From NCBI RefSeq assembly GCF_003448965.1, contig NZ_QRGC01000030.1, positions 6,991 through 38,990 of the forward strand: a stretch of DNA of 32,000 nt, read 5' to 3'. This document shows positions 1,353-25,377 of this stretch, piece by piece. The stretch is from Oceanicella sp. SM1341. Its GTDB lineage: Bacteria; Pseudomonadota; Alphaproteobacteria; Rhodobacterales; Rhodobacteraceae. Both the position numbers and the translations under genes were made by a program. Under the pieces are notes generated by a model. That model was not told where the DNA came from, did not search any database, and saw only the letters and a program-made list of their open reading frames with translations. Every line of letters starts with the position of its first letter. Within the stretch, counting starts at the first letter, position 1.

Positions 1353-3344
1353 ATGTCCGGTACCAAGATCCTCTGGGGGCAGATCCTCACGGTCTTTCTG
1401 ATCGTTCTTCTCACCACCTGGGGCGCGACCGAATATGTCGCCTGGAGGCTCGGGTTTCAGGCGCAGCTCGGATCGCCCTGGTTCATCCTGCTGGGCTGGC
1501 CGGTCTATCTGCCGCCGTCCTTCTTCTGGTGGTGGTATGCCTACGATGCCTATGCCCCCGACATCTTCGTCCGCGGCGCCTTCATCGCCGCGTCGGGCGG
1601 TTTCCTCGCCATCGCTGTCGCGATCGGCATGTCGGTCTGGCGCGCACGCGAGGCCAAGAAGGCGGAAACCTATGGCTCGGCGCGTTGGGCAGAGGCGCAG
1701 GAGGTGAAGTCGGCCGGGCTGCTGCGCCCCGATGGCGTGGTGCTCGGGCAATATAATCGTGACTATCTTCGCCACGACGGGCCGGAGCATGTCCTGTGTT
1801 TCGCGCCGACCCGATCAGGCAAGGGCGTCGGTCTCGTCGTCCCGTCGCTGCTGACCTGGCCCGGATCGGCGATCGTCCACGACATCAAGGGTGAGAACTG
1901 GCAGCTCACCTCCGGGTTCAGATCGCGCCACGCCCGCGTGCTCCTGTTTGACCCAACCAACGCCAAATCCGCCGCCTACAATCCGCTGCTCGAAGTGCGG
2001 CGCGGCGAATGGGAAGTGCGCGATGTCCAGAACATCGCCGACATCCTGGTCGACCCCGAAGGCAGCCTCGAGAAGCGAAACCATTGGGAGAAGACCTCTC
2101 ATGCGCTCTTGGTCGGCGCCATCCTGCATGTGCTCTATGCCGAGACGGACAAGACGCTGGCCGGTGTCGCCGCCTTCCTCTCCGACCCAGGGCGGCCAAT
2201 CGAGTCGACGCTGGCCACCATGATGAAGACGGCGCATCTGGGGCAGGGGGGACCGCATCCCGTCATCGCCAGCGCGGCGCGCGAACTGCTCAACAAGTCC
2301 GACAACGAGCGCTCGGGCGTGCTCTCCACGGCCATGTCGTTCCTCGGCCTCTATCGCGATCCTGTGGTGGCCGAAGTTACCCGGCGCTGCGACTGGCGCA
2401 TCGGCGACATCGTGGGCGCAAAAGACCCCACCACGCTCTATCTCGTCGTTCCTCCCTCCGACATCAACCGCACCAAGCCGTTGATCCGCCTGATCCTCAA
2501 TCAGGTGGGCCGTCGACTAACAGAAGATCTGCAGGCGAAAGCGGGCCGCCACCGGCTGCTGCTGATGCTCGACGAGTTTCCGGCGCTCGGCCGGCTCGAC
2601 TTCTTCGAGAGCGCACTCGCCTTCATGGCCGGTTATGGGCTGAAAAGCTTCCTGATCGCGCAATCGCTGAACCAGATCGAGAAGGCCTACGGCGCCAACA
2701 ACTCGATCCTCGACAATTGCCATGTTCGCGTCAGCTTCGCGACCAACGACGAACGCACGGCCAAGCGCGTCTCCGATGCACTCGGCACGGCCACGCAGAT
2801 GAAGGCGATGAAGAACTATGCCGGACACAGGCTCAGCCCCTGGCTCGGGCACCTCATGGTGTCGCGCTCGGAGACCGCGCGGCCGCTGCTCACCCCCGGC
2901 GAAATCATGCAGCTTCCGCCGAGCGACGAGATCGTCATGGTCGCGGGCACACCACCGATCCGGGCGAAGAAGGCCCGCTACTACGAGGACGCGCGCTTCA
3001 GCGAACGCATCTTGCCGCCACCGGCACACAGCGCGCCGAATGAGGGCCGCCCGGATGATTGGACCACGCTTCCATTGCCGGCGCGCCCGGCAGTGGCTGA
3101 GACGAAGGGTGCAACAGTGTCTCAGGACGAGGATACGACCGACTCCGAGCGCCGCCGTCAACCCGAACTCAGCCGGGTGAAGCCGGTGGAAAAGAAGGTA
3201 CCGATCGACAACCCCTTCGAACTGGATGCTGATCGAGACGAGGAGCTCGACGATGCTGCAACGCGCAATCAGCGCATGACCGGGCTCATGCAAGGGGTGG
3301 CGCGGCAGGTCTCGCTTGATCCGAACGACGGCATGGAGCTGTGA
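1353..3344 (+). CDS. traG: Type IV coupling protein TraG (VirD4 family)
   Basis: 663 aa with N-terminal hydrophobic segments. Walker A is APTRSGKGVGLVVPS and Walker B is LLLMLDEFPALG. SD AGGAAAGG lies upstream of the ATG at 1353. Confidence 0.95.
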   Translation: MSGTKILWGQILTVFLIVLLTTWGATEYVAWRLGFQAQLGSPWFILLGWPVYLPPSFFWWWYAYDAYAPDIFVRGAFIAASGGFLAIAVAIGMSVWRAREAKKAETYGSARWAEAQEVKSAGLLRPDGVVLGQYNRDYLRHDGPEHVLCFAPTRSGKGVGLVVPSLLTWPGSAIVHDIKGENWQLTSGFRSRHARVLLFDPTNAKSAAYNPLLEVRRGEWEVRDVQNIADILVDPEGSLEKRNHWEKTSHALLVGAILHVLYAETDKTLAGVAAFLSDPGRPIESTLATMMKTAHLGQGGPHPVIASAARELLNKSDNERSGVLSTAMSFLGLYRDPVVAEVTRRCDWRIGDIVGAKDPTTLYLVVPPSDINRTKPLIRLILNQVGRRLTEDLQAKAGRHRLLLMLDEFPALGRLDFFESALAFMAGYGLKSFLIAQSLNQIEKAYGANNSILDNCHVRVSFATNDERTAKRVSDALGTATQMKAMKNYAGHRLSPWLGHLMVSRSETARPLLTPGEIMQLPPSDEIVMVAGTPPIRAKKARYYEDARFSERILPPPAHSAPNEGRPDDWTTLPLPARPAVAETKGATVSQDEDTTDSERRRQPELSRVKPVEKKVPIDNPFELDADRDEELDDAATRNQRMTGLMQGVARQVSLDPNDGMEL

Positions 3345-3793
3345 ACGCGATGACCGAACGCAAGAAGAAGGCGCAGATCTCCGTCTATCTTGATCCCGGA
3401 ATCATGGAGATGCTGGCGGATTATGCCGCGCGCCGGGATCAGCCGCAGTCGATGATCGCTGAAGCCGCCATCGCCTCGTTCCTGTCGCCTGACGCCGCTG
3501 AACGGCGCGAAGCGGTGATCGTCAAACGTCTCGACCAGATCGACCGGCGCATGACCCGACTCGAACGTGACATGGGCATTGCCATCGAGAGCCTGGCCGT
3601 GTTCATCAAATACTGGGTGGCCACCACACCGGCATTGCCGGAACCGGCCGCCCAGGCCGCTCGCGCCAAGGCCGGGGAGCGCTACGATCAATTCGTCACG
3701 GCGCTCGGCCGCCGTCTCGCGAAAGGCCCGAAACTTCGACAGGAAATATCTGAAGACGTTGGGCAGACGCAGGAATCGGGCAGAGGAACCTGA
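3341..3793 (+). CDS. Ribbon-helix-helix (CopG-like) protein of the traG-trbB intergenic position
   Basis: The start is a GTG overlapping the traG stop (GTGA at 3341-3344), with an alternative ATG at 3350. The N-terminus KKKAQISVYLDPGIMEMLADYAARRDQPQSMIAEAAIASFL fits a beta-strand/helix/helix RHH fold. The gene sits at the conserved position between traG and trbB. Confidence 0.7.
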   Translation: MNAMTERKKKAQISVYLDPGIMEMLADYAARRDQPQSMIAEAAIASFLSPDAAERREAVIVKRLDQIDRRMTRLERDMGIAIESLAVFIKYWVATTPALPEPAAQAARAKAGERYDQFVTALGRRLAKGPKLRQEISEDVGQTQESGRGT

Positions 3794-3899
3794 TCAGTTG
3801 CTGATTTAAAAGCTCGCTTCGCAGATCGGAGACGATCGCTGGCACGTGCAAGCTCACGCTTCGACCGCCGCCGTTTTCCTGTATTTGCACGCCACGCTA

Positions 3900-3999
3900 C
3901 TACGACGCTAAATACTTGTTGAATCAGCTATAAATCAGGCTCTTTTAATCATCCCCGCATGGGGGTCGCCTTTTTGTCCCCGTTGGAATCGGGGATCGG
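3900..3999 (+). promoter_or_regulatory. Candidate trbB promoter/operator and structured leader
   Basis: This is the only sizeable non-coding gap in the transfer module. It has AATCAG direct repeats at 3922-3927 and 3933-3938, 11 nt apart, flanking TATAAA (3929-3934). TTGAAT lies at 3919-3924. Alternating C4/G4 tracts run from 3953 to 3994 and the last one overlaps the trbB SD. Confidence 0.35.
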
Positions 4000-4989
4000 A
4001 TGGCAGCCTCACATCACAATTCGGAAGGGATCGCTCGAGGCGCGCGGATGCTGCGCACCGCGCTCGGTCCGGCCATCGCGACTTTCCTGGAAGACCCAGG
4101 AGTCGTCGAGGTGATGCTGAACCCGGACGGACGGCTCTGGATCGATCGCCTCTCCGAGGGACTGTCCGATACGGGCGAGCATCTGTCATCGGAGGATGGC
4201 GAACGGATCATCCGTCTTGTCGCCCACCATGTCGGTGCGGAGGTCCATACCGGAAGCCCCCGCGTCTCGGCGGAACTGCCCGGAACGGGAGAGCGGTTCG
4301 AGGGACTTCTGCCGCCAGTCGTGGCGGCGCCGGCCTTCGCCATCCGAAAGCCGGCCGTCGCGGTGTTCACGCTGCTGGACTACGTGGCCGCCGGAATCAT
4401 GAGCGCCGAACAGGCCAATGTTTTGCGCCGCGCCGTCTTCGACCGCGCCAACATCCTCGTCGCAGGCGGCACTTCCACCGGCAAGACGACGCTGACCAAT
4501 GCGCTGCTCGCCGAGGTGGCGAAGACCTCTGATCGCGTCGTCATCATCGAAGATACCCGCGAGTTGCAATGCGCCGCGCCCAACCTTGTCGCCATGCGGA
4601 CCAAGGACGGCGTCGCCTCGCTCTCCGATCTCGTCCGCTCCTCGCTGCGCCTGCGCCCCGACCGAATTCCGGTCGGCGAGGTGCGTGGCGCCGAGGCGCT
4701 GGACCTTCTCAAAGCCTGGGGCACCGGCCATCCCGGCGGCATAGGGACCATCCATGCCGGCAGCGCCATCGGCGCGCTGCGCCGCATGGAACAGCTCATT
4801 CAGGAAGCCGTCGTCATCGTGCCCAGAGCGCTGATCGCCGAGACAATTGACCTCGTGGCGGTGCTCTCCGGCCGCGGTGCCGCGCGCCGGCTCTCCGAAC
4901 TCGCCCGCGTCGAGGGCCTCGGCACGGACGGCGATTACCGCATCGTGCCCGCCACCACTCATCTCCAGCCCGAAGAAGGAACCTCCTAA
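4000..4989 (+). CDS. trbB: Conjugal transfer ATPase TrbB (VirB11 family)
   Basis: 329 aa with Walker [12 protein letters not shown], plus the EDTRELQ and [12 protein letters not shown] motifs typical of VirB11/TrbB secretion ATPases. Confidence 0.95.
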
Positions 4990-8895: not shown

Positions 8896-9165
8896 ATGGA
8901 CGGCAAGACCCTCGCACGCATCGGCGCCATCGTCTTCGTCGCGGTCGCGATCACCGCCACCGTGATCCAGATGACCCGCAAAGATGCGGTGCCTCCAGCG
9001 CCCGCCGCGTCCTCCGCGCCGACGGCGGACAGGCAAGATCCGCTGAGCGCGGAGCTAACCCGATGCAGCCAGGCCGGAGAAGCCGCCACACATGATCCAG
9101 CCTGCCTTAATGCCTGGGCCGAGAACCGTCGGCGTTTCCTCGGTCACAGCAGCGAAGGGCGCTGA
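8896..9165 (+). CDS. trbK: Putative entry-exclusion protein TrbK-alt
   Basis: 89 aa. The N-terminal TM segment is LARIGAIVFVAVAITATVI and the C-terminal motif is CLNAWAENRRRFLG. It sits between trbJ and trbL. Confidence 0.6.
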   Translation: MDGKTLARIGAIVFVAVAITATVIQMTRKDAVPPAPAASSAPTADRQDPLSAELTRCSQAGEAATHDPACLNAWAENRRRFLGHSSEGR

Positions 9166-9229
9166 ACGTGAAAGTAGAGATGAAGCGCTCCATCGCCTTC
9201 CGGAGACGAGTTTCTCTATCCCTCTTCCC

Positions 9230-9263
9230 GAACCGGACATGCAGGTTTCCAAGCATCCGGCTC
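9230..9263 (-). ncRNA. Group II intron domain V
   Basis: The minus strand reads GAGCCGGATGCTTGGAAACCTGCATGTCCGGTTC. This is a 34-nt hairpin with the AGC triad, a G-U wobble, a 2-nt bulge and a GAAA-type apical loop. Confidence 0.9.
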
Positions 9264-9299
9264 TCCATGCACGGGCGGTCGTCAGCCCGTGGGTGTGCC

Positions 9300-10826
9300 T
9301 CAAACGCGTCTGAGGCGCGCGAACGCAGTCCAGAAGTCAAGCAGGGTTTCCCGATGCCTGTTTTCCCATCTTGCGTTCCATCCGTTCGGTTTCTCGATTC
9401 GCTGTTCCGGGTAACGCATGGTTCCTCCGTCAGTGAAGAACCGCAGGCGTCTGGACCCTTCGGTCCATTGCCGTCGTTTTCCGGGGGCGCTGAGATGATA
9501 GCGGCGCCGCAGGGTCGGCCAACCCGCATTGCCGTGCTTCATCTTCAACCAGCGCCCGACGCGCTGCCATATCCAGAAGTCGAGATGGCTGAACCGACCG
9601 TGCGCGCCTGTGGCGTAACGGTAATAGTTCCTCCACCCCGTGATGACCGGATTGAGCCTGTCGATGACGTAGGCAAGGTCGCGTCCCGTGGGGATGCCCC
9701 TCACCATGACCTTGATCTTGTGGCGCAGGTCGTTCAGCTTTCCCTTCGGGATGAAGAGATTGCCGACCCATCGGCCTGTCCGACAGGCTCTGGTCTGCGC
9801 CACCCGGTAGCCGAGGAAGTCGAAGCCTTCCCTGACATCGGTGATCCGGGTCTTTTCCATCGACAGTTCCATGCGAAGCTCCGTCTTCAGGAACTCCGCC
9901 AGCGCGAGCTTTTCCGCTTCCGCCTGCTCCCGCGTGCCATCCACGAGAACGACGAAGTCGTCCGCGTATCGCACCATGTAGAGCACCGGCCGACCCCTCT
10001 TGTGGTCTCTGACCCTTCGGGCCGCCGGATTGATGCTCGGTTCGCGGGGGCGGCCTGTCCACCATCCATACCGCTCGTCGATGGCTGTCAGGTAGATGTT
10101 CGACAGCATCGGCGAGATGATCCCGCCTTGCGGCGAGCCGGTGACGGGGTGGCGTTCGGTCCCTTCGACCATCACACCGGCTTTCAGGAACGAGAGGATC
10201 AGCGCCAGCACCTTGCGGTCGCCGATGCGTTTCCGGACCCGCTCCATCATGACGTGATGATCGATGGCGTCGAAGCAGCCCTTGATGTCTCCCTCTATGA
10301 CATAGCGATAGACCGAGGGTCCGCGCTTTGTCGGGTGAAGGAACCTCTGGATTCTTGCCAGAGCATCGTGGGTGCTTCGACCGCGCCGGAACCCGTAGGA
10401 GGTCGGATAGAAGTCCGCCTCGAAGATAGGCTCCAGGACCAGCTTCAAAGCCATCTGCACCAGACGATCGACCAACGTTGGAATGCCGAGTGGCCGGAAC
10501 TGCCCCGGTTTGCCGGGCTTTGGGATAAGCCGCTGCCTGACCGGTTGGGGACGATAGGTTCCGTTGCGAAGCACCTCGCGTATCTCATCGAGGAACCCTG
10601 CTGCGCCACCGGGACGCTGTTCGACCATGCGCCGCGTCACCCCGTCGGTGCCGGGTGTCTGGCTGCCCCGATTACCGGACAGCCTTCGCCACGCCTCCTC
10701 AAGGAATCGGCGGTCGCATACGAGATTGAACAGACCAGCGAAGACCTTGTCGGGGTCTTCGTTGCTCCACCGATACAGCTTGCGCTGCATGTCGAGGACG
10801 AACAAGATATTCATCTCGTTGGACAT
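9300..10826 (-). CDS. Group II intron reverse transcriptase/maturase (no En domain)
   Basis: 508 aa from the ATG at 10826, preceded by AGGAGG with a 7 nt spacer. RT motifs present: IPKPGKPGQFRPLGIPTLVDRLVQ, DIKGCFD, GSPQGGIISPMLSNIYL, RYADDFVVL. The maturase X motif is ITGWRNYYRYA. The C-terminal ~90 aa contain no Cys and no HNH signature. Confidence 0.93.
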   Translation of the reverse strand: MSNEMNILFVLDMQRKLYRWSNEDPDKVFAGLFNLVCDRRFLEEAWRRLSGNRGSQTPGTDGVTRRMVEQRPGGAAGFLDEIREVLRNGTYRPQPVRQRLIPKPGKPGQFRPLGIPTLVDRLVQMALKLVLEPIFEADFYPTSYGFRRGRSTHDALARIQRFLHPTKRGPSVYRYVIEGDIKGCFDAIDHHVMMERVRKRIGDRKVLALILSFLKAGVMVEGTERHPVTGSPQGGIISPMLSNIYLTAIDERYGWWTGRPREPSINPAARRVRDHKRGRPVLYMVRYADDFVVLVDGTREQAEAEKLALAEFLKTELRMELSMEKTRITDVREGFDFLGYRVAQTRACRTGRWVGNLFIPKGKLNDLRHKIKVMVRGIPTGRDLAYVIDRLNPVITGWRNYYRYATGAHGRFSHLDFWIWQRVGRWLKMKHGNAGWPTLRRRYHLSAPGKRRQWTEGSRRLRFFTDGGTMRYPEQRIEKPNGWNARWENRHRETLLDFWTAFARLRRV

Positions 10827-11464
10827 GGGTCCACCTCCTGCCTGCTCGCTGTATCCACTGCCTTCCTTCGCCATGTGGACGGCTTTCCCGTCCCCGGACT
10901 ACTACGAAGGCTCCGCCCCTCACCATCGCGGTCGCTGGTCGCTTCAGCCATCCGGGGTCCGACTGTTCCGGAAGCGACGGCAAGGTTCTTAGGTTCCGTA
11001 ACTGATCTCTCGCCTGCTTTAGGCGCCGACTTTACCCCGTGTGGATTCCGACCCCGATACCGCGCAAGCTCATATCGAGGCTGGCGCACGGCACGCCGCA
11101 CACCCCCAGCCCATGTGTCCATAGCACGGGCCAACGCTCCACAAATCTGCGGTTCGCACCACAGACCGACCCGCCGACTTCCGAGTTGGCGTGTCTCCGC
11201 GCGTAACGAGGCGTCCGCCATCGGTTCGGTTTCCCTCGCCATGGCAGGCTCGCTGGCCGGACCACGTACGGGATCGGAAGTCCCCGCCCGTCCGGCTTTG
11301 ATGGGTTCTGCTGATTTATGGCTCCCCGGAAGCACCCGGTTTGCCTCACCCATCGGCTTGTCACCGCATGTTGCGCCACACGGTGCGCGGGGCCTTTCAT
11401 CCCGCGAGATCAGAAACGACAATAAAATCAAAGCACTCCTTTCTTTGATCAGGACCTAACGCAC

Positions 11465-12796
11465 ATGGGCAACACCGGCGTCATCGATCACTTCCTCGAT
11501 GTCTTTACCCGCTACATCGACGGCGGCTTCGGTCTGCTTGGCGGCGAGGTCGGTTTCATCGCCACCACGCTGATCGTCATCGACGTGACGCTGGCCGCGC
11601 TCTTCTGGTCCTGGGGCGCCGACGACGACATCATGGCGCGGCTCGTCAAGAAGACGCTTTTCGTCGGTGTTTTCGCCTACATCATCTCCAACTGGAACAA
11701 TCTGGCCCGGATCGTTTTCGAAAGCTTCGCGGGGCTCGGCCTGAAGGCGTCCGGCACGGGCTTTACCACGGCCCAGCTTCTCCAGCCCGGCAAGGTCGCC
11801 CAGACCGGCCTTGATGCGGGGAGGCCGCTGCTCGATTCCATCTCGAACCTGATGGGCTATTGGTCCTTCTTCGAGAATTTCATCCAGATCGCCTGCATGT
11901 TCTTCGCCTGGGCGCTGGTGCTCTTGGCCTTCTTCATCCTCGCCATCCAGCTCTTCGTCACGCTGATCGAGTTCAAGCTGACGACGCTCGCCGGCTTCGT
12001 GCTGATCCCCTTCGGTCTCTTCGGCAAGTCCGCCTTCATGGCCGAGCGGGTGCTCGGTAACGTCATCTCCTCGGGCATCAAGGTTCTGGTGCTCGCCGTT
12101 ATCATCGGTATCGGCTCGACACTCTTTTCCGAATTCGCCGCAGGGTTTGGCGGCGCGACACCGACCATCGACGATGCGATGGCGATCGTGCTGGCAGCCC
12201 TTTCACTGCTTGGCCTCGGCATTTTCGGCCCCGGTATCGCAACGGGGCTCGTCTCCGGCGGTCCCCAGCTTGGCGCCGGATCGGCGATCGGCAGCGGTCT
12301 TGCTGCCGGCGGCATGGTCGTCGCGGGCGGCGCGGCGCTCGGGGCTGCGGCCTCCGGTGGCGCATCTCTCCTTGGCGGAGCGGCGGCAGCCGCCCGTGGT
12401 GGGGCCGCGCTCGCGGGCGGGGCATCCACCGCCTACAGCCTCGGCGCCGCCGGACAGACCGGCGCGTCCGCCGTTGCATCTGGCCTCGGCAATGTCGCCA
12501 GCACCGGCGCATCGCAGGCTGGATCTGCCTTGGTCAGCCCGCTCAGACGCGCCGCGGGATCGATGCGCGGCAGCTTCGAGGCCGGTGGGCGTGCCGTCTC
12601 CGGCGAAGCCGCTGCCGATGAACGTGCATCGGCCGCAGCCGCAGCCTCATCTGCGCCCGACAGCCCGCCTGCCTGGGCAAAGCGCATGAAGCGCTCCCAA
12701 GCCATGTCCCACGGGATGCAGGTCGCAGCCCATTCCGTCCGCAGCGGCGACAGCCACGGCAGCGGCTCTTCCGTCAACACCTCCGAAAGCGACTGA
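11465..12796 (+). CDS. trbL: TrbL (VirB6 family)
   Basis: 443 aa. The N-terminus GVIDHFLDVFTRYIDGGFGLLGGEVGFIATTLIVIDVTLA is typical of TrbL. It has multiple TM segments and a Gly/Ala-rich C-terminal tail. Confidence 0.93.
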   Translation: MGNTGVIDHFLDVFTRYIDGGFGLLGGEVGFIATTLIVIDVTLAALFWSWGADDDIMARLVKKTLFVGVFAYIISNWNNLARIVFESFAGLGLKASGTGFTTAQLLQPGKVAQTGLDAGRPLLDSISNLMGYWSFFENFIQIACMFFAWALVLLAFFILAIQLFVTLIEFKLTTLAGFVLIPFGLFGKSAFMAERVLGNVISSGIKVLVLAVIIGIGSTLFSEFAAGFGGATPTIDDAMAIVLAALSLLGLGIFGPGIATGLVSGGPQLGAGSAIGSGLAAGGMVVAGGAALGAAASGGASLLGGAAAAARGGAALAGGASTAYSLGAAGQTGASAVASGLGNVASTGASQAGSALVSPLRRAAGSMRGSFEAGGRAVSGEAAADERASAAAAASSAPDSPPAWAKRMKRSQAMSHGMQVAAHSVRSGDSHGSGSSVNTSESD

Positions 12797-15774: not shown

Positions 15775-16014
15775 ATGACCAAACTGAAACTTGGGCCACT
15801 CGCCGACGACAAGCCGGTCAAGGTCACACTGGAGCTGCCCGCCAGCCTGCACCGAGACTTGACCGCCTATGCCACAATCCTTGCCCGAGAGGTGGGGCAG
15901 CCCGCCGCCGATCCTACTCGCCTGATCGTCCCCATGCTGGAGCGGTTCATCGCGACGGATCGCGGCTTTGCGAAGGCCCGGCGGACATTGCCGAGAGAAT
16001 CTCCGCCGGGCTAG
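15775..16014 (+). CDS. DUF2274 family protein (conserved last gene of Trb-type transfer modules)
   Basis: 79 aa, MTKLKLGPLADDKPVKVTLELPASLHRDLTAYA..., starting 2 nt after the trbI stop. Both the position and the sequence are characteristic of the family. Confidence 0.8.
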   Translation: MTKLKLGPLADDKPVKVTLELPASLHRDLTAYATILAREVGQPAADPTRLIVPMLERFIATDRGFAKARRTLPRESPPG

Positions 16015-16927
16015 GGTCGCTTGCGCTATGGGATTTTGCCATCTGGCGCGCCATGCTGATCAGACGCCGACTGGCAGGATTGTCATTGTGCGGCGACCAG
16101 ACTGCGCTGAAGGGCAGCACCTCACCCTGGATCGGCCGATAGACGACGCCTGGAAACTGCGCGGCCGTCGTCGCTTCGCTGGTCAAGGTCAAGCCACGAC
16201 CGATCGCGACCAAGGTCATGAGGTTGTCCCTTCCAACACTTTGCGCCTCAATCTCTGGGTGCCGACCAAGCTCGGCGAGCCGCTGCATCAGAAAATCGTG
16301 AATCTCCGGCCCTGGGGCGGAATCGCTAATGATGAAACGCTCTCCTGAGACATCCGTCCACTCGATCTCGTCGAGTTGCGCCAGCGTATGTTGGAGCGGG
16401 AGAACCAGAAAGACGCGCTCGCTCCAGAGGTGCATGGTATCGCAGCCTCTCCAAGCCGCTGTCCCAGTTATGAACGCGACGTCGAGCCGAAGCTGACGCA
16501 CCGCGGCAACATGTTCCGCCGGATTGCCGTTGATCAAATCAATCGAGACACCAGCATGGGCCCGATCATAGGAATTGAGCAACTCGTGAAGAAAGCCGGA
16601 CGCCAGCGATGAAAATATTCCGATCTTGATTTGCCCTTCTTCCGATCTGCCGATGCCTGCAACCTCGTTGGCGCCTTGATGGACGCTTTTCAGAGCCGTT
16701 CGGGCTCGGACCAAAAAGCGCTGTCCAGCCACCGTCAGGAGCACACCAGTGGTCCTGCGTTGGAATAGCGATGCGCCTAGCATGTCTTCGAGATCGCGAA
16801 GACGGCGGCTGACAGCGGACTCCTGCATGCCAAGCGCCTTCGCAGCCTTGCGGAAACTGCCTTGTTCCGCTGCAGCTACGAAATATCGGAGATGCCTAAG
16901 TTCTATGCGGAGATCGCATCTGGCCAT
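15947..16927 (-). CDS. LysR family transcriptional regulator
   Basis: The N-terminal wHTH is LRHLRYFVAAAEQGSFRKAAKALGMQESAVSRRLRDLE, followed by a LysR substrate-binding domain. The last ~22 codons run antisense into the DUF2274 gene. Confidence 0.88.
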   Translation of the reverse strand: MARCDLRIELRHLRYFVAAAEQGSFRKAAKALGMQESAVSRRLRDLEDMLGASLFQRRTTGVLLTVAGQRFLVRARTALKSVHQGANEVAGIGRSEEGQIKIGIFSSLASGFLHELLNSYDRAHAGVSIDLINGNPAEHVAAVRQLRLDVAFITGTAAWRGCDTMHLWSERVFLVLPLQHTLAQLDEIEWTDVSGERFIISDSAPGPEIHDFLMQRLAELGRHPEIEAQSVGRDNLMTLVAIGRGLTLTSEATTAAQFPGVVYRPIQGEVLPFSAVWSPHNDNPASRRLISMARQMAKSHSASDPSPAEILSAMSAGPSQSRDPSR

Positions 16928-17228
16928 GGCGCAGCTCTAAACAAGGCCACTTCGGCAACGCTGAAAACAACATCTGGCCGCTGTGCGAGACCCGCATGAT
17001 CGCAATTGGGTATGAGTGGAATTGGGGCGAACGGTACCGCGGATTCTCCTTCAGCCTTTGCCTTCATTTGAGAGATCCCCAAGTCATTTTGTCGAATAAG
17101 GTGTGCCGTATTTCGCCTGCACACGTAACAGCGGCACCCGAAATGTAACCGAGGACCGGATCGCTGTACGTCTAGCCACACACGGTGCGCCTGTAATTTC
17201 TGCGATGGAGAAGGTGGGTTTCATGCTG

Positions 17229-18011
17229 TCATGCCGGAATGGAAATGCCTGACAGTTTCCGACATTTTTCGATCAGCTTGTCCTGCAGATCGCAATCGCT
17301 TGCCTCGGGATTGGCAGAACGTTCACGCATGTGATGAAAATAGCGCCCCGTCACTCGGGCCGCGGCATCATCGCTCGTTGCAAGCCAGGCCTGCGTTCGA
17401 TGCGCCTCGTCCAGATCATCTGGGGCGCTGGGGCCACCCATGCGGGTTGGAACCCAGCCCGGCTCCAGCGCATTCGACAGCACCGATGTCCAGCGACGCG
17501 CTATTGCGAAAGCGAGCAATACGTCATGCAGTTTGCTCTCAGAATAGGCTTCGGAGCCATCCCATACGCGTTTGCGCCATTCCAGGTCGTCAAGGGCCGC
17601 GCCTGCCCAGTGATGCATGCCGGAGCTGAGATAGACAAGCCGATCGGGCCTTTCGATCAGGGCCGTCAGTGCATAGGGCGCCAAGACATTTACCGCAAAC
17701 ACATGCGGCAGACCCTCCTCTGTTTCGAGCCGCCGCCGCTCCCGATATCCGACCCCGGCATTGTGAATAATCGCGTTGAAGCGTCCAAGCCTGTTAACCT
17801 GTTCGGCAACTTGGCGGGCACCCGCGACACTCGAAAGATCGCCTACGACCACAGCCTCCGCCATTGGCAATGCTTGAAGGGCATCCTTGGCTCGCGCTTC
17901 GTTTCGTGCATGAAGGACGACCTGATGGCCTTGCTCGACCAGCAACTGGCCTGCCATAAGCCCAAGTCCTGTCGACGATCCGGTAATAAACACTCTGCGC
18001 ATCTGCGACAT
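17229..18011 (-). CDS. SDR family NAD(P)-dependent oxidoreductase
   Basis: Rossmann motif VFITGSSTGLG, NAG motif IHNAGV and catalytic YSESK. SD GGGGA lies upstream of the start. Confidence 0.9.
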   Translation of the reverse strand: MSQMRRVFITGSSTGLGLMAGQLLVEQGHQVVLHARNEARAKDALQALPMAEAVVVGDLSSVAGARQVAEQVNRLGRFNAIIHNAGVGYRERRRLETEEGLPHVFAVNVLAPYALTALIERPDRLVYLSSGMHHWAGAALDDLEWRKRVWDGSEAYSESKLHDVLLAFAIARRWTSVLSNALEPGWVPTRMGGPSAPDDLDEAHRTQAWLATSDDAAARVTGRYFHHMRERSANPEASDCDLQDKLIEKCRKLSGISIPA

Positions 18012-18025
18012 GTCTGTTCCCCGGC

Positions 18026-18883
18026 CTACTGAGCGACCAGTGTCTCGATCACGGTGTCGAGCGTTACGGTCCCGGTTCGGTGTTCCGCGCTGCCGCCTTC
18101 GAAATCGACCCAGCCTTCGTTGAAACCGTCAAGCATACGGATCCGCAGCGTTGGATTATTCATCCCTTGTGCGCGGAAGAGGGCTTCCCAGCTGTCGTGC
18201 GGCACGGGTTCCGTTGCCACGGGATGGCCGAGAGCCGCGGCAAAGGCCGAGGCGATGTCATTGGCGCAATAGCGTCGCGGCCCCTCGAGCTCGACAATAC
18301 GTGTTCCGCCCCAGGTTTCACGCAGGAGACTGGCTGCAGTCCGGCCGATGTCGCTTGTTGCGACCATCGGGATCGGGTGATCGAGCGGTTGCAGGAAGGA
18401 GGGAATCGTGCCCTCACGGGCGGACGCCAGATCCCATTTCGCATTGTCCATGAACCAAGCGGCGCGCAGAAAACATACCGGGATAGGGAGGGCGCGCAAT
18501 GCTTCCTCCATCATCCTCGAATTGTTGAGAAGCATCGGCTCCGCCACATGCGCGCCGACCGTCGATAGAAACAGCAGCTTGCCGGGCTGGGCGGTTTCAA
18601 CTGCCGAGGTGACGACGGCAATGATCTGCGCCGTCTGCGGAAAGCCCGGTTCAGGATCGTAGTTTGGCGGCATCAGCAGGAAGACGCCCTCGGCGCCGCC
18701 AAACGCCGCTGCCAACGCATCGGCATCAAGGATATCGGCGATGGCAATCTCACAGCCCTTCGCGGCCCAGATCGCTCCCTTTTCTGCATTGCGGACGACG
18801 GCGCGAACGGGAAGGCCCGCGTCGAGCAGAGTTTGCGCGACGATCGCTCCGACTTGTCCGGTAATACCTGTGACGACGTACAT
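18026..18883 (-). CDS. NmrA-like NAD(P)-binding protein
   Basis: The start is set at MYVVTGITGQVG (GGAGA SD upstream), which avoids overlap with the upstream SDR. It has the atypical-SDR/NmrA architecture without YxxxK. Confidence 0.8.
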   Translation of the reverse strand: MYVVTGITGQVGAIVAQTLLDAGLPVRAVVRNAEKGAIWAAKGCEIAIADILDADALAAAFGGAEGVFLLMPPNYDPEPGFPQTAQIIAVVTSAVETAQPGKLLFLSTVGAHVAEPMLLNNSRMMEEALRALPIPVCFLRAAWFMDNAKWDLASAREGTIPSFLQPLDHPIPMVATSDIGRTAASLLRETWGGTRIVELEGPRRYCANDIASAFAAALGHPVATEPVPHDSWEALFRAQGMNNPTLRIRMLDGFNEGWVDFEGGSAEHRTGTVTLDTVIETLVAQ

Positions 18884-18906
18884 CTGTGTCTCCGTGTCTT
18901 GTGAAT

Positions 18907-19644
18907 TCAGAAGGTCCAGGGCGAACCGGCATCCCATAGGGCTTGGCTCATCGCCTCAAGCTGCGAGGGATCGTCTCGCACCATTGCCCACAAATCCTCG
19001 GCGGCCTGATCTGCGTAGACGTGATCGATGCGGCTCGCGAGACCATCGAGAGTCCGCTCCGCGACCTGGGAGGGCGGAGTCTTTTCTGCCTCGACGGCGG
19101 CGGCCATCGCCGTATCGATAAACCCAGCATAAACGCCAACGACGTCGATGTTCTGGGCCTTGAGCTGCACTCTCAGGGCGTTGGTGATCGCCAGGCCGGC
19201 AAATTTCGTGGCGCAATAGGTGGCGTTGAACGGATAGACATACCAGCTAACGACCGAGAGCATATTCGCGATCGCACCGCCGCCGTTTTGCGCGATGACA
19301 GGCGCGAAGGCCTGTGCCATGCGAAGCATACCGAAGACGTTGACCTCCAGTTCAGTGCGGAGCGCCGTTTCTGCCTGCGGATCGAGGATAGGCGTGGCGA
19401 GCATGGTGCCAGCGTTGTTGATCAAAAGATTCACATCGGGACATGCAGCGACGGCCGCCGTAATGTGCTCAGGCGAGGTTACGTCGAGTTGCAGCGACGT
19501 CACGCGGTGATCCGTGATCGTCGAGGGATCGCGGGCACCAGCATAAACTTTTGCCGCGCCGCGCGCGATCAGCGCGTCAGCATAGGCTTTCCCGAGTCCG
19601 CGATTAGCGCCCGTCACGAGGGCTGTGCAGCCTTTAATATCCAT
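18907..19644 (-). CDS. SDR family oxidoreductase
   Basis: Motifs ALVTGANRGLG, NNAG and YCATK; 245 aa. Confidence 0.9.
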   Translation of the reverse strand: MDIKGCTALVTGANRGLGKAYADALIARGAAKVYAGARDPSTITDHRVTSLQLDVTSPEHITAAVAACPDVNLLINNAGTMLATPILDPQAETALRTELEVNVFGMLRMAQAFAPVIAQNGGGAIANMLSVVSWYVYPFNATYCATKFAGLAITNALRVQLKAQNIDVVGVYAGFIDTAMAAAVEAEKTPPSQVAERTLDGLASRIDHVYADQAAEDLWAMVRDDPSQLEAMSQALWDAGSPWTF

Positions 19645-19772
19645 TGCTCACTCCATTTGAGTGCATGGATACAACAGTGAGCAGAGAGACTTTAGTGCGC
19701 CTTTGTCAGCACATTGATGACGGAATGGGTGGAATGATTGGGTTATGCGCAACCATGTGCTTGAAGAACCCG

Positions 19773-20717
19773 TTACCCGGCGTTGTGGCGTTGCGCTCGC
19801 GCAATCTCGCTACAGAAGTCGATGAAGGCGCGAACTTTGGCAGCAGGATGCCGACGGGACGGATGGACGATGTACAGCGGGAACCTCTCTCCGGGCCAAT
19901 CGGGAAACAGTTCGATCAGATCGCCCCTATCCAACAGGTCCTGAATGCCGAACGCCATGACCTGGGCAATTCCCGCGCCCGCGAGGCAAGCGCCCAGCAT
20001 CGTTCCCACATCTGTGACAAGTAGTGGCCCCGATGTCCGGACCGGGGCGATCTTCTTCCCGCGATGCAACTCCCACTCGAAGGGGCGGCCGGTCAATGGA
20101 TCCCGGTATTGAATGCAGGCGTGCTTCATCAAGTCTGACGGCGTCGACGGTCGACCGTGTGCCGCCAAATAAGACGGAGCCGCAACTGTGAGGATACGGG
20201 TCTCGACGAGGAGCCGCGTGATTTTCGACGACCCGGCCTGCGGCCCGAACCGAACGGCAACGTCAATCCCTTCCGCGACCAGGTCGCCCATCACATCGCT
20301 GGTGAACAGCTCAATACTTATGTCAGGATATCTTCGGAGAAACTCCGACAGTCGCGGCGCCAGTACGAGCCGCGAGAAATAGGGATCCACGTTTACGCGC
20401 AGCCGGCCCCGCACGGTTTTCGAGGAACCGGAGGCCAGAATCGCCGCTTCCTCGATACCGTCGAGATGCGGCAGGACGTCCCCGTACAAACGTGCACCCT
20501 CATCGGTTAGATGAAGTGCCCGCGTCGTCCGGTCGAGAAGTCGCACACCGATGCGGCTTTCCAACCGCGAGACTGCTCTGCTGACGCCGGACGCGGAAAG
20601 GCCAAGTACCTCGGCGGCCTTCACGAAACTGCCATTCTCCACCACGGCCGCCAGAACGCTCACGCCGGCCAATATCCTTCCGTCAAACGCCATCATCAAT
20701 TCCGCACTATTTGTCAT
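19773..20717 (-). CDS. LysR family transcriptional regulator
   Basis: wHTH FVKAAEVLGLSASGVSRAVSRLESRIGVRLLDRTTR followed by a CrgA-like substrate-binding domain ending in AKVRAFIDF. The start could instead be the Met at 20696 or 20693. Confidence 0.88.
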   Translation of the reverse strand: MTNSAELMMAFDGRILAGVSVLAAVVENGSFVKAAEVLGLSASGVSRAVSRLESRIGVRLLDRTTRALHLTDEGARLYGDVLPHLDGIEEAAILASGSSKTVRGRLRVNVDPYFSRLVLAPRLSEFLRRYPDISIELFTSDVMGDLVAEGIDVAVRFGPQAGSSKITRLLVETRILTVAAPSYLAAHGRPSTPSDLMKHACIQYRDPLTGRPFEWELHRGKKIAPVRTSGPLLVTDVGTMLGACLAGAGIAQVMAFGIQDLLDRGDLIELFPDWPGERFPLYIVHPSRRHPAAKVRAFIDFCSEIARAQRHNAG

Positions 20718-20730
20718 GAATTATATGACA
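20712..20730. promoter_or_regulatory. Perfect 6-bp inverted repeat TGTCAT-N7-ATGACA at the LysR start / divergent promoter region
   Basis: The repeat is read directly from the sequence. It overlaps the ATG at 20715-20717, and the minus strand carries TATAAT within the spacer. Confidence 0.35.
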
Positions 20731-20902
20731 GAAGGGCGTTTGGATCAAAAGTGAAAATCAGACCATGATCTCGCGCAGCGTAATCGAGAGAACAAGAATG
20801 GTCCAAAAGCAAGTCGGCCACGGCCGAGAGGAAGTAGCGACTCCGGGCGCCTCACAGGAATGTCCATTGGTCCGTGAGCCATCGGCACCAGAACGAGGGG
20901 AA

Positions 20903-21727
20903 ATGGCCAGCCCCCTCATGCTCGGCTTGCTGACCGCAAGCGCGGCGCTCGTCGCGGCGGGAAGCTATTTTGCTCAGCCCATCGCTTACACGATTAGCGA
21001 CACTCTCGGGATATCGAGCATAGTTGCCGGGTTCGTCGTTACCGTAGGACAAATCGGTTATGTAATCGGCTTGCTCTTTCTCATGCCGTTGGGCGATCTG
21101 ATCGAGATCCGTCGGTTCCTCTCTGTCTTGCTCGTCGGATCCATCGCCTGCCTCGTCGCCATAGCGATCGCTCCGAACAGCACGACATTCTTCGTTGCGT
21201 GCCTTGGGATCGGCATTTCCTCCGTCTCGGTGCAAATTCTTGTCATGCTTGCCGCGTTCATGAGTTCGAGCGAGCGGCGGGGACAGGCTGTTGGGACCGT
21301 AACTGGCGGGCTCTTGATCGGTATCCTTCTTGCCTGGCCTGTTGCCACCTTCGTTTCGGCCCGTCTGGGTTGGCGCGCGCTCTATGGGCTGGACGCTTTG
21401 GTTTTCACGATACTCGCCACCGCGTTGCGTCGGTCGCTTCCGTCACGTCGGGTTCATACACAGCAGCGCTATGTGACGCTCGTCAGGTCGCTTTCGCAGC
21501 TATGGGTGGGCGAGCCGGAATTACGACATCGGGCCATACGGCAAGCCTTGCTCTTCTTCGGATTCAGCCTCTACTGGACGACGGTGCCCGTCGAACTGCG
21601 CGAACAGAACGGCCTGGGTCCGAACGGGATTGCTCTGTTCGGCCTGATCGGTGGTGCCGGCGCGCTCGTCGCTGTATCTATGCAGCAACAAAGGCTGCGA
21701 TCCGCAATTTCGCCCGGAGCTGGATGA
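20903..21727 (+). pseudogene. MFS transporter, 3'-truncated (about 8 TM segments retained), reading into foreign sequence
   Basis: GAGGGG SD precedes the ATG at 20903. The sequence is MFS-like (GQIGYVIGLLFLMPLGDLIE, SSERRGQAVGTVTGGLLIGILL). Recognisable similarity ends near 21672 after GLIGGAGALVA, followed by 18 unrelated codons and a stop. Confidence 0.7.
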
Positions 21728-21981
21728 TCGAGTTGGCGCCTCGACATATCCGCGTCAACGTACTGGCGCCGGGTGCAACGTCCACACCCGGTTGGCATGG
21801 TCTCGCCCCCGACGAGAAGACCCATCAGGCGATGCTGGATAGCGTAGCCCGCACGACGCCGTGGGGCGAGCTCGGAGACCCCGCCGATGTGGCCGCAGCC
21901 GCGCTCTTCCTCGCGTCCGATGATGCCCGCTTCGTCAACGGCAGCGAGCTCTTCGCCGATGGTGGCTCCGCTCAAATCTAG
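21673..21981 (+). pseudogene. SDR oxidoreductase, 3' fragment only (starts at the catalytic YxxxK)
   Basis: This is a different frame from the MFS ORF. It reads IYAATKAAIRNFARSWMIELAPRHIRVNVLAPGATSTPG...FLASDDARFVNGSELFADGGSAQI. The Rossmann N-terminal half is absent. Confidence 0.75.
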
Positions 21982-22032
21982 CCGGCGGACGCATGCACTC
22001 ATCGCAATACACGTCCATTCAAAGGAGGTCAC

Positions 22033-22458: not shown

Positions 22459-22495
22459 TTTCCATTCAGGATGCGAGCCACCATCCGCTTATCGA

Positions 22496-22517
22496 TGCAA
22501 CCGCGCGCTGGGTTGCA
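22496..22517. terminator. Hairpin between convergent genes (TGCAACC-N8-GGTTGCA)
   Basis: A 7-bp GC-rich stem read from the sequence, lying between the 3' ends of the SnoaL-like and 2-hydroxyacid dehydrogenase genes. There is no clear U-tract. Confidence 0.3.
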
Positions 22518-22542
22518 GGGAACCGAACTGAAGAAAAGTAAC

Positions 22543-23568: not shown

Positions 23569-23569
23569 A

Positions 23570-24304: not shown

Positions 24305-24339
24305 TCTTCACCTCATCACCGTTCGATGGAGGCAAAATA

Positions 24340-24360: not shown

Positions 24361-24382
24361 AATTTGCGACAAATATTGTGAT

Positions 24383-24694: not shown

Positions 24695-24760
24695 ATAGTT
24701 TTCAGGGTCAAGTGGGGGCGGCAGTTGAGATTTTCCTTGAGGCTTCCCCTGCACCGGCTC

Positions 24761-25345: not shown

Positions 25346-25377
25346 TTATCTGCTCCTCGGCATCTTGCAAACGGAAG

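Follow-up and report, generated by a model that had tools for sequence, protein, structure and literature searches.

In bacterial operons, termination and reinitiation take place at overlapping or abutting stop and start codons, and translation suppresses Rho-dependent polarity. Bacterial group II introns that run against the transcription of integron cassettes have been described, group IIC-attC introns with internal outward-oriented promoters, termed Pout (Leon, Quiroga, Centron and Roy, 2010; PMC3001079), and translated antisense ORFs have been reported in Pseudomonas aeruginosa (PMC8850804). The locus analysed here lies in a 32,000-nt stretch of DNA from Oceanicella sp. SM1341 (the window), in which a group II intron is inserted antisense at the trbL start within a trbB-trbI conjugation operon, and one frame in the operon direction is open from end to end of it. 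No published description of such a conserved antisense bridging frame was found in the literature.

The features of the locus are listed in Table 1. The intron lies between the trbK stop, 2 nt away, and the trbL ATG, and trbF, trbG and trbI (VirB8, CagX and TrbI matches) follow tightly 3' of trbL. The limits of the intron were placed at 9168 and 11464 because the Rfam match to domains V and VI covers 9265-9168, the 5' end reads GTGCG at 11464-11460 and the boundaries (5' GTGCGTTAGG, 3' ...CTACTTTCAC) align with those of relatives; they are also supported by the trbK-trbL junction, which is uninterrupted in intron-less homologues. The length is 2297 nt, correcting the 2291 nt of an initial sequence-only reading. 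The Rfam D1-D4 class models gave no match to the intron.

Table 1. Features of the trbK-intron-trbL region (window coordinates).
Feature	Position	Strand	Details
trbK (entry-exclusion lipoprotein gene)	8896-9165	+	Pfam TrbK, E=2e-36; stop TGA 9163-9165
GAAGGG, Shine-Dalgarno-like motif	9154-9159	+	8 nt upstream of GTG 9168
Group II intron	9168-11464	-	2297 nt; antisense to trb operon; Rfam RF00029 and aligned boundaries
Domains V and VI (catalytic core, 3' end)	9168-9265	-	Intron_gpII, 54.9 bits, E=2.5e-8
Antisense open reading frame	9168-11459	+	763 codons; GTG start, TAA stop; codon-aligned with RT
In-frame ATG	9180-9182	+	Reverse complement of conserved domain VI ...CTTCAT
Intron-encoded reverse transcriptase/maturase (RT)	9300-10826	-	508 aa from M17; Pfam RVT_1 and GIIM; TIGR04416, 339 bits
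Second stop-free frame, sense strand	10811-11431	-	206 codons from a TTG, with AAAGGAG 5 nt before it
5' ribozyme part, domains I to IVa	10827-11464	-	Non-coding for RT; alignment with relatives
Candidate EBS1 loop (ATGGGC / ATGGAC)	11109-11122	-	Complementary to exon GCCCAT
Candidate EBS2 (GACAC)	11191-11195	-	Pairs with exon GTGTT (trbL codons 3-5, other strand); by eye
AGGA	11451-11454	+	10 nt upstream of trbL ATG, within last codons of antisense frame
TAA stop of antisense frame	11457-11459	+	Reverse complement of TTA, intron positions 6-8; 5 nt before trbL ATG
trbL (VirB6-like)	11465-12796	+	Pfam TrbL, E=8.5e-57; ATG at 11465

The RT open frame reaches 10874, and the gene itself probably starts at M17 (10826), as called by gene finders and by PGAP at the equivalent position of homologues; with this start, the ribozyme occupies 638 nt on the 5' side and non-coding sequence 132 nt on the 3' side. 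Profile searches detected no endonuclease domain in the RT/maturase. In relatives, the candidate EBS2 loop and the exon change together (GACACC/GGTGTC, CAGTGG/CCACTG and GACTTGAAC/GTTAAGGTC, read by eye), and the candidate EBS1 loop, whose exon partner is the start of trbL (ATGGGC) in reverse complement, reads AUGAGU or GUGGAU in relatives where the exon is GTTCAT or GTTCAC. As a separate observation from that on the antisense strand, the sense-strand stop-free frame spans the 5' ribozyme part and ends 13 nt beyond the RT ATG; its presence shows that the ribozyme region is under constraints only partly understood.

In the operon direction, the frame with codon starts divisible by 3 has a TAA at 9108-9110, is open from 9111 and meets its first stop just before trbL, exactly as initially read, and within the intron the remaining two frames are interrupted by 27 and 28 stops. 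Its first start codon is the GTG at 9168-9170, followed by the ATG at 9180. As the intron ends at 9168, this GTG is the reverse complement of the last three intron bases (CAC); the equivalent of the ATG is the start in relatives without the terminal GTG. GTG-AAA is intron sequence, and the proposal that trbL had begun at this GTG before insertion (MKMGNTG...) is refuted by intron-less homologues, which read a stop, 2-4 nt and then ATG GGN AAY ACS GGC GTC ATC GAC (MGNTGVID). The GAAGGG motif, at a spacing of 8 nt from the GTG and not 7 nt as first counted, was the trbL ribosome-binding site before insertion; an intron-less Paracoccus homologue reads agcgaagggcggTAG GCAC ATG. At the far end, the AGGA is a weak ribosome-binding site with long spacing, kept in most trbL-site copies and replaced by GGGA in one variant, and the TAA stop is common to seven further variants. 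Opposite the RT gene the frame runs in codon register with it, so that its stops there would correspond to the RT sense codons TTA, CTA and TCA.

From the window, the probability that the non-coding intron parts stay open is 0.0078 (0.022 x 0.36; dinucleotide-preserving shuffles). The probability of an RT with zero TTA, CTA or TCA codons is 0.012 under sister-intron codon usage and 0.12 under host usage, for a joint value of about 1e-4 to 1e-3. For a post-hoc observation this is rare but short of decisive, and it is the comparative data that settle the matter.

Ten distinct variants of the intron (79-92% nt identity, several genera) were found antisense at the same trbL-start site. The frame is open throughout in all ten and terminates ahead of the trbL start, at a distance of 5 or 16 nt; it is conserved in every copy found at this site. 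All the looked-up RTs with at least 78% identity belong to antisense introns with the 5' end adjoining the trbL start codon, as does a copy from a metagenome scan (L081). The close relatives are hosted by Bradyrhizobium, Sphingopyxis, Mesorhizobium, Methylocapsa, Agrobacterium vitis, Sphingomonas and several metagenomes, and the sole stops in their aligned antisense frame lie 5, 13 or 16 nt from the intron 5' end; in a subclade with a 1-nt deletion the frame ends at a TGA 16 nt before the start. trbL and trbF are undamaged at every intron-bearing locus examined. The upstream junctions are of the types TGA-AC-GTG, CC/GTGA (stop and start overlapping) and TAG, 7 nt, ATG, the start signal being a GTG at +0, an ATG at +11 or +12, or a frame open far upstream, and the downstream junction is TAA-CGCAC-ATG in eight variants.

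Whole-intron antisense frames also occur in relatives inserted ahead of traA and ahead of a phage capsid gene. L001 and L203 stand 11 nt before the ATG of traA; the frame of L203 opens 38 nt inside the intron 3' end, and that of L001 continues for 112 nt past the traA start, in a reading frame other than that of traA. L006 lies between prohead protease and major capsid genes, and an RT tree places L002 and L006 outside the core clade, amid closed-frame lineages. Open copies at the trbL and other sites diverge by 8-35% of nucleotides, and stops among the open variants are confined to the terminal 5-45 nt, whereas sister introns in the same hosts have 3-17 stops in this frame. Sister introns at a DUF736 site have the same antisense insertion without an open frame, and therefore the open frame is not required for such a lifestyle. 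One chromosome carries two identical intron copies in two different trb clusters, and RT and TrbL identities are incongruent among copies; the intron moves between trb operons, and the open-frame trait travels with it.

The RT codons TTA, CTA and TCA are absent from the 13 open variants (0/744; TTA 0/50, CTA 0/548, TCA 0/146) and present in ten sister introns (48/609; TTA 12/87, CTA 16/395, TCA 20/127), whereas the remaining A-ending codons are used equally in both groups. This contrast (Fisher p = 8e-18) is uncorrected for phylogeny and is confounded by it, since a single clade contains 11 of the 13 open variants. In a phylogeny-aware stop-gain test, the observed substitutions were re-placed. 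Among 268 distinct substitutions in the ribozyme, 6.6 new in-frame stops were expected, and one was found on the consensus background and none in the real sequences (P(0) = 0.0014), while gains in the other two frames were near expectation (4 vs. 5.1 and 10 vs. 7.9 expected). For 367 synonymous RT substitutions, 15.5 new stops were expected against one (consensus background) and zero (real sequences); the within-clade coding test reaches only moderate significance once general CTA/TTA avoidance is allowed for. Stop-triplet events in the ribozyme numbered 0 in the antisense frame and 8 and 16 in the others, with control triplets uniform. Internal indels of the core clade measure 3 and 6 nt, with the exception of a single 1-nt deletion, which lies 114 nt before the frame ends and is followed by a new stop.

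We consider that the open frame is probably a selected translational bridge (anti-polarity, coupling) that keeps the downstream transfer genes expressed. An intron lineage without endonuclease would retrohome antisense, a few nt upstream of a start codon; in this wrong orientation it is not spliceable from the operon mRNA, and the lineage would have evolved one stop-free antisense frame over its whole 2.3 kb, kept by purifying selection. Ribosomes finishing trbK would restart at GTG 9168 or ATG 9180 by means of the former trbL site GAAGGG, read about 760 meaningless codons, terminate at the TAA and reinitiate at the trbL ATG, aided by the AGGA. Such unbroken translation would mean that the long antisense RNA is not an untranslated stretch exposed to Rho termination and decay, and it would restore the translational coupling that preceded insertion; the benefit may be relief of Rho polarity, coupling, or both. 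The data show the anatomy of the locus, its conservation and a signature of selection against stops with none on the amino-acid sequence; translation of the frame, and the preservation of trbL-trbI expression by it, we infer from these. Several observations weigh against this reading: the upstream start signals differ between variants, the AGGA is weak and long-spaced, the L001 frame overruns the traA start, the sister introns at the DUF736 site do without an open frame, the second, sense-strand frame points to further constraints on the ribozyme region, and the C>G bias seen in the antisense RNA does not exceed that of the flanking genes. The initial suggestion that the frame helps the operon to tolerate an unspliceable antisense intron is thus favoured by comparative conservation, stop avoidance and junction placement, shorn of its GTG start for trbL and its intron length.

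The same evidence of selection would fit a frame translated for a benefit other than trbL expression: ribosomes might keep the operon RNA from pairing with the intron sense transcript and silencing it, or might protect operon RNA in general. The L001 frame, overrunning the traA start, makes precise coupling impossible there, and the conserved sense-strand frame ending at the RT start hints that translation of the ribozyme matters to the intron. We regard this reading as unlikely, given the precise placement of stops and starts at both junctions in all trbL-site copies and the association of the trait with insertion in operons, or in leaders of genes on which a conjugative element or phage depends (trbL, traA, capsid). 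It is quite unlikely that an outward promoter in the intron 5' region drives trbL-trbI, leaving the frame irrelevant to expression. As a precedent, Pout promoters lie in domains I-II of introns that run counter to the transcription of integron cassettes (PMC3001079), and a conserved AT-rich stretch with TAAAAT at 11423-11428 lies 37 nt upstream of the trbL ATG, but no -35 match stands at the right spacing from it, a sigma-70 consensus scan of the intron plus strand was negative, and a promoter leaves unexplained both the exclusion of stops over 2.3 kb and the end of the frame 5 nt before trbL.

A genuine overlapping gene, encoding a protein of roughly 760 aa with its own function, is very improbable. 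The ORF is long, its length is conserved and it has start codons and ribosome-binding-site-like motifs; moreover, GC-rich bacteria are reported to contain translated antisense overlapping genes (PMC8850804). Against this, the product matches nothing in Pfam or NCBIfam and is rich in Arg, Pro and Ala, the junk-like composition noted at the outset. Variability in the ribozyme part is equal across the three antisense codon positions (0.49, 0.43 and 0.42), without a third-position excess; where it overlaps the RT gene, the product is changing more quickly than the RT itself (64-82% vs. 80-91% identity); its last 38 codons are replaced in the 1-nt deletion subclade; and both its N and C termini vary between insertion sites. 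The constraint is thus on the absence of stops and not on a protein sequence. Finally, a chance shadow ORF, in which GC-rich genes rarely use TTA, CTA and TCA and the ribozyme is luckily stop-free, is close to refuted, and the initial view that the frame 'could equally be chance' is rejected: although the codon-aligned frame is the one most often open opposite GC-rich genes, long antisense ORFs are frequent elsewhere in the window and whole-intron open frames also occur in several high-GC actinobacterial relatives, chance is at odds with the window probability, the diverged open copies, the terminal confinement of their stops, the closed sisters and the stops expected but essentially not found.

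As with the group IIC-attC introns, this is a bacterial group II lineage with a fixed target site. Those introns are of class C, target attC sites and have a promoter in domains I-II as their remedy, whereas the present lineage targets start codons within operons or leaders, and in place of a consensus promoter there is a conserved stop-free antisense frame with stop/start junctions at both ends. The intron resembles RmInt1-type rhizobial introns (PMC4075523) in its encoded protein, with RT and maturase and without endonuclease domain, its alphaproteobacterial hosts, its association with mobile DNA, its EBS/IBS target recognition and its multiple copies; Sinorhizobium meliloti ltrA copies (RmInt1-type) were matched at about 46% identity. 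It differs in its longer protein (508 aa) and length (2297 nt) and in its antisense target at a gene start, and a whole-length antisense frame is not known to have been reported for RmInt1.

Like the shadow ORFs of GC-rich genes, the frame is codon-aligned over 1.5 kb opposite the RT gene, its potential stops being the rare TTA, CTA and TCA. Unlike them, it runs on through 770 nt of non-coding ribozyme, is conserved in diverged copies and lost in sister introns, and the critical codons are absent and not just rare, while the encoded amino acids bear no sign of selection. Its ends are those of translational coupling: an upstream stop 2 nt from the next start or overlapping it (TGA-AC-GTG, GTGA), and at the far end TAA-5 nt-ATG, where the upstream frame itself contains a motif resembling a ribosome-binding site. 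Intron-less homologues have trbK and trbL coupled in this same manner. It departs from usual coupling in that the middle cistron is the antisense of a ribozyme and an RT gene, the sole apparent requirement for which is that it can be translated.

The minus-strand element opposite the antisense frame was identified as a group II intron from both its RNA and its protein. Domains V-VI matched the Rfam family RF00029 at 9265-9168 of the minus strand (54.9 bits, gathering score 40), and the intron-encoded reverse transcriptase/maturase (RT) matched Pfam RVT_1 (2.7e-31) and GIIM (2.7e-15) and the NCBIfam equivalog TIGR04416 for group II RT/maturases (339 bits, cut-off 300). The Rfam class models for D1-D4 gave no match even at E<=1, the DV/DVI families alone being matched, and a search of plasmids for near-identical DNA returned partial matches only and no copy of the window intron. 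Alignment with relatives placed the 5' end (GTGCGTTAGG) from 11464 downwards and the 3' end (...CTACTTTCAC) finishing at 9168. As both ends, GTGCG at 11464-11460 and TTTCAC at 9173-9168, were kept in the relatives and fit the group II boundaries 5' GUGYG and 3' AY, the intron spans 9168-11464, that is 2297 nt, which corrects the 2291 nt of the sequence-only reading; the GTG at 9168 corresponds to the final three intron bases as read on the other strand. Homologous RTs were started by gene callers and PGAP at the equivalent of M17 (window 10826, with GGAGGTG ahead), and this start leaves a 5' ribozyme of 638 nt and a 3' non-coding part of 132 nt. Candidate loops for the exon-binding sites EBS1 and EBS2 were complementary to the 5' exon and covaried with it across variants, as read by eye from an alignment, which leaves the exact loop limits uncertain; the EBS1 candidate reads AUGGGC, AUGAGU or GUGGAU, i.e. 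the trbL start on the opposite strand.

The intron lies in a row of conjugation genes, namely a DUF3363 relaxase-like gene, traG, trbB, trbE, trbJ, trbK, trbL, trbF, trbG and trbI, followed by cargo genes. The RT gene (minus strand) runs against the trb genes (plus strand), and in all relatives too the orientation is opposite to host transcription. The cargo genes downstream of trbI (15947-31950), most of them minus-strand, encode three LysR regulators, several short-chain dehydrogenases, two aldo-keto reductases, a 2-hydroxyacid dehydrogenase and an MFS transporter. The antisense frame is preceded by a TAA at 9108-9110, is open from 9111 and meets its first stop, a TAA, at 11457-11459 (+). 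Its first start codon is the GTG at 9168, with the next in-frame ATG at 9180, and it appeared in the ORF listing of the window as 9168..11459 (+), 763 aa; the two other plus-strand frames carry 27 and 28 stops across the same stretch.

The usual view is that bacterial group II introns persist through gene avoidance or splicing, and a backward intron inside an operon is expected to cause strong polarity and to be lost quickly. One way around this would be an outward promoter in domains I-III of the intron, of the kind present in group IIC-attC introns, which would drive trbL. A lone TAAAAT was the sole promoter-like element on the intron plus strand, and a consensus scan of the operon (+) strand between 8800 and 11700 found no sigma-70-like promoter, although such a scan covers alphaproteobacterial promoters poorly. 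In the same interval, no intrinsic-terminator-like hairpin was found on either strand, against 2.0 expected from shuffles. The C>G bias that marks rut sites was confined to the 638-nt part opposite the 5' ribozyme (C 0.36, G 0.26), the intron plus strand as a whole being no more C-rich than the flanking genes, which is weak support at best. Local folding around the trbL start (z = -0.85) gave no sign that the start is locally sequestered; that the trbL start pairs at long range with the EBS1/EBS2 complements in the operon RNA is a speculation.

To place the intron among its relatives, genomes, metagenomes, viral contigs and plasmids were scanned and a protein search was added, yielding >200 loci (selected ones are listed in the table). 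Wherever the RT was at least 78% identical and the DNA was fetched, the intron was antisense, its 5' end abutted the trbL start (CAT/GTGCG or CAC/GTGCG, the slash marking the boundary) and trbK or trbJ lay on its other side; L081, from the metagenome scan, was also antisense at the trbL start. Introns at this site were 79-92% identical in pairs, and every intron-bearing locus retained intact trbL and trbF. Two 100% identical introns were present in different trb clusters of a single Sphingomonas sp. QA11 chromosome (L201 and L202), with TrbL proteins 78% identical and differing flanks, which is direct evidence of recent retrohoming to the trbL start. The identities of RT and TrbL were also incongruent: between L180 and L194, TrbL is 96% and RT 82% identical, and between the window and L180, RT is 91% and TrbL 70% identical, so that, by these comparisons, the intron moves between trb operons. 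At two of the trbL-site loci, L081 (1912-4206) and L199 (1863), the first intron base was mutated (CTGCG and GCGCG, respectively), which should impair splicing; their RT and antisense frames were still intact.

Features of the window and of loci carrying related introns
Feature or locus	Position	Strand	Host	Remarks
trbK, window	8896-9165	+		Pfam TrbK
trbL, window	11465-12796	+		Pfam TrbL
Sense stop-free frame, window	10811-11431, open from 11455 to 10814	-		Frame +1 relative to RT, 206 codons
L180, trbL site			Bradyrhizobium	
L181-185, trbL site			Sphingopyxis	
L186-193, trbL site			Metagenomes	
L194-195, trbL site			Mesorhizobium	
L196-198, trbL site			Methylocapsa	
L199-200, trbL site			Agrobacterium vitis	
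L201, trbL site	CP098774.1 4372245-4378771		Sphingomonas	
L202, trbL site	CP098774.1 4070548-4077074		Sphingomonas	
L207, trbL site				
L001, intron	2414-4706			Antisense-frame stops: none
L203/L204, intron	1908-4206			Antisense-frame stops (L203): one 5 nt from 5' end, one 38 nt from 3' end
L006, intron	2077-4344			Antisense-frame stops: one, 31 nt from 5' end
L002				Antisense-frame stops: two, in last 15 nt
L208				Antisense-frame stops: one, 220 nt from 5' end

Somewhat more distant relatives were found in comparable positions at other genes. L001 and L203/204 lie antisense 11 nt upstream of the ATG of traA (MobA/MobL relaxase), in the divergent traA-traC/traD region, which normally holds oriT, and L208 sits 12 nt ahead of the ATG of a further gene. 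L006 is antisense between the genes for an HK97-type prohead protease and the major capsid protein in a prophage-like region, adjoining GGAGGAAGAATCATG, and its antisense ORF has 741 codons. In the RT tree the trbL-site and traA-site copies formed one clade, and L002 and L006 fell among lineages in which the frame is closed. A sister group (L161-L164, L018, L082, L212 and L213), present in Shinella, Bradyrhizobium and Pseudomonas aeruginosa, targets the start of DUF736 genes (MATIGTF...), where it is again antisense and sits 10-11 nt before the ATG, with 5' ends near locus positions 2434, 2441, 554, 1865 and 271. On plasmid p2 of Agrobacterium leguminum (L165), two group II RT genes, 414-2108 and 3049-4575, follow each other in tandem in one orientation with about 900 nt between them, and may represent a twintron or adjacent insertions.

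The distribution of the open frame among these introns bears on a second alternative, that it is a compositional shadow ORF. For the window alone, the frame stayed open over its two non-coding stretches in 2.2% and 36% of dinucleotide-preserving shuffles (joint 0.0078). Because the antisense frame shares its codon register with the RT, any stop in it along these 1.5 kb would require a sense TTA, CTA or TCA codon, and the probability of an RT lacking all three was 0.012 with the codon usage of sister introns (same alphaproteobacterial family, frame closed) or 0.12 with that of the window's host genes. The joint chance was 1e-4 to 1e-3, a low value that is not decisive on its own for a post-hoc feature among nature's many introns.

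The relatives were more informative in this respect. Stops in the same frame of other copies, which had been named beforehand as evidence against the idea, were absent across the entire intron in 10/10 trbL-site variants, the only ones lying 5, 13 or 16 nt from the intron 5' end and thus immediately ahead of trbL. In the sister introns, the DUF736-site group (2-9 stops) included, 2-17 stops were spread over the intron, and the distribution of stop counts was bimodal. Outside this family, five actinobacterial relatives with RTs 42-45% identical (L030, L037, L046, L069 and L043) also had no stop in the aligned frame from one intron end to the other. In a set of 50 introns of the actinobacterial type, absence of stops opposite the RT went with absence opposite the 5' ribozyme (5/7 vs. 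7/43, Fisher p=0.006); in these open frames, high GC raises the likelihood of chance.

Codon usage in the RT genes followed the same division. The RTs of 13 open variants used TTA in 0/50 TTR, CTA in 0/548 CTN and TCA in 0/146 TCN codons, compared with 12/87, 16/395 and 20/127 in ten sister RTs, whereas GTA, GCA, GGA, CGA and ATA were used equally in both groups; the groups compared are phylogenetically non-independent. At four-fold sites of the core clade, A occurred in some variant at 55/115 columns of the other codon families, vs. 0/25 for CTN and 0/6 for TCN, a naive comparison with all A-ending codons that overstates the case. Since the hosts avoid CTA and TTA anyway, sister introns were taken as the reference and a re-placement simulation was used, in which distinct core-clade substitutions, excluding those shared with the window, were reassigned to random positions carrying the same base. 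The 367 synonymous RT substitutions were expected to create 15.5 new stops and 1 was seen, or 0 in the real sequences, in a simulation that holds no term for the general avoidance of CTA and TTA; allowing for it by rough estimates, the within-clade coding test gives about 0.003-0.15, i.e. moderate support.

The ribozyme test stands on its own. In ribozyme columns 46-638, triplets that would be antisense stops arose at 24 alignment columns; the antisense frame had 0 of these and the other two frames 8 and 16, with control triplets even across frames. Re-placing 268 ribozyme substitutions predicted 6.6 new stops, compared with 1 observed on the consensus background and 0 in the real sequences (P(0) = 0.0014), and the other two frames behaved neutrally (4 vs. 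5.1 and 10 vs. 7.9 expected). This larger set was used instead of an earlier frame-count test on four relatives only, which was too weak (p ~0.04). Indels in the core clade were of 3 and 6 nt, apart from a 1-nt difference at the extreme 3' end of the intron and one 1-nt deletion 114 nt from the end of the frame, after which a new stop is used 16 nt before trbL. With a joint probability of 1e-4 to 1e-3, the frame retained against 6.6 plus 15.5 expected new stops, and sister introns closed, base and codon composition alone do not explain the openness of the frame.

A gene for a conserved protein was rejected, given the uniform variability of codon positions and the lack of matches to Pfam and NCBIfam families. 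Across the ribozyme, variability did not differ between the antisense codon positions (0.49, 0.43 and 0.42), and in the RT overlap the antisense product changed faster than the RT (64-82% vs. 80-91% identity). The constraint is on the absence of stops and not on a protein.

A second stop-free frame, on the sense strand, was called as a gene of 206 aa by several pipelines. From a TTG start 5 nt after AAAGGAG it runs through the 5' ribozyme to a stop 13 nt beyond the RT ATG. By phase, events creating sense stops numbered 33, 5 and 30, with uniform controls. The frame was found in most alphaproteobacterial relatives, always ending at +1, +4 or +16 of the RT start, and was absent in the actinobacterial ones; it showed no constraint at the amino-acid level and matched no family. 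That it is a by-product of the antisense constraint was rejected, because TGA is still permitted in that phase and lineages with a closed antisense frame have it too. Coupled to translation of the RT, it might serve as a leader ORF.

Many plasmids have the same trb junction without intron. The intron-less site reads ...agcgaagggcggTAG GCAC ATG GGC AAT ACC in Paracoccus p2 and ...gcgcgcTGA CC ATG GGA AAC in an Enterobacter plasmid; these empty sites join exactly, as stop, 2-4 nt and ATG, and in both plasmids trbL begins MGNTGVID. Removal of 9168-11464 from the window in silico gave ...GAAGGGCGC TGA AC ATG GGC AAC. Thus, trbL always started at its ATG, with GAAGGG at the trbK end, and the suggestion in the sequence-only reading of an older trbL start at the GTG was rejected.

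With the intron in place, the window reads TGA-AC-GTG upstream and TAA-CGCAC-ATG downstream, a stop lying within a few nucleotides of the next start at both ends. The upstream junction (trbK TGA, 2 nt, GTG) was the same in L196; in L194 and L199 the intron end completes trbK (...CC/G TGA), which overlaps the GTG start as GTGA, and in L180 and L181 trbK ends ...CC/G TAG, with a conserved in-frame ATG 7 nt later. In L081 a 39-codon upstream ORF ends in a TAA 2 nt before the conserved ATG (GGATAAGTATG), and L201, L202 and L207 have the same sequence. Downstream, eight variants read AGGACCTAACGCAC directly followed by ATG (or GTG), with AGGA 10 nt and TAA 5 nt upstream, and the subclade with the 1-nt deletion has TGA, 16 nt and GTG. 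In this anatomy, two stop/start junctions flanking the antisense frame take the place of the former trbK-trbL coupling.

These junctions would let ribosomes leaving trbK reinitiate on the antisense frame, cross the intron and terminate beside the trbL start; such translation would shield the operon RNA from Rho and decay and would restore trbK-trbL coupling. Such a bridge is favoured by the intact trbL and trbF of every intron-bearing locus and by the spread of the intron among elements whose own spread needs these genes. Against it, start signals vary between variants, the AGGA before trbL is weak, the frame of L001 overruns the traA start by 112 nt and out of frame, DUF736-site introns live antisense without an open frame, and trbL may be served by an outward promoter that the scan did not detect. 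We put the chances as even that this is an intron lineage specialised on antisense insertion at start codons in conjugative and phage operons, whose stop-free 2.3 kb bridge frame neutralises polarity by letting host ribosomes carry expression across an unspliceable intron, possibly with an RT-coupled sense leader ORF, in which case one RNA sequence would be shaped by a fold and by translatability on both strands.

Many conjugative elements of alphaproteobacteria carry this widespread lineage backwards inside their transfer operons, and its sequence bears the signature of another solution, that of being translatable on the wrong strand. If confirmed, the bridge would be a new route for a selfish element to cut the cost to its host and a natural instance in which selection favours "an open frame and nothing else". 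It would also be an extreme of overlapping constraints, one stretch of DNA combining a ribozyme fold, an RT gene and frames open on either strand. As RT-silent stop codons can be placed at will, the system is suited to separating translation-dependent anti-polarity from coupling. For annotation, it is a warning that long antisense ORFs here are neither genes nor pure noise.

The literature search yielded no paper on an intron at trbL or on a group II intron with an antisense frame running through it; the window intron is classed as a group II intron whose adaptation had not been described before. The nearest concept is that of the group IIC-attC introns with an outward-oriented promoter, Pout (PMC3001079), which are likewise inserted opposite to host transcription and meet the same problem with another remedy; in contrast to them, the window intron targets the trbL start codon and not attC or a terminator-like stem-loop. 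Along the RT gene, the antisense frame is similar to shadow ORFs of GC-rich genes (PMC8850804), but it differs from them in that it also covers non-coding RNA and is maintained without constraint at the protein level.
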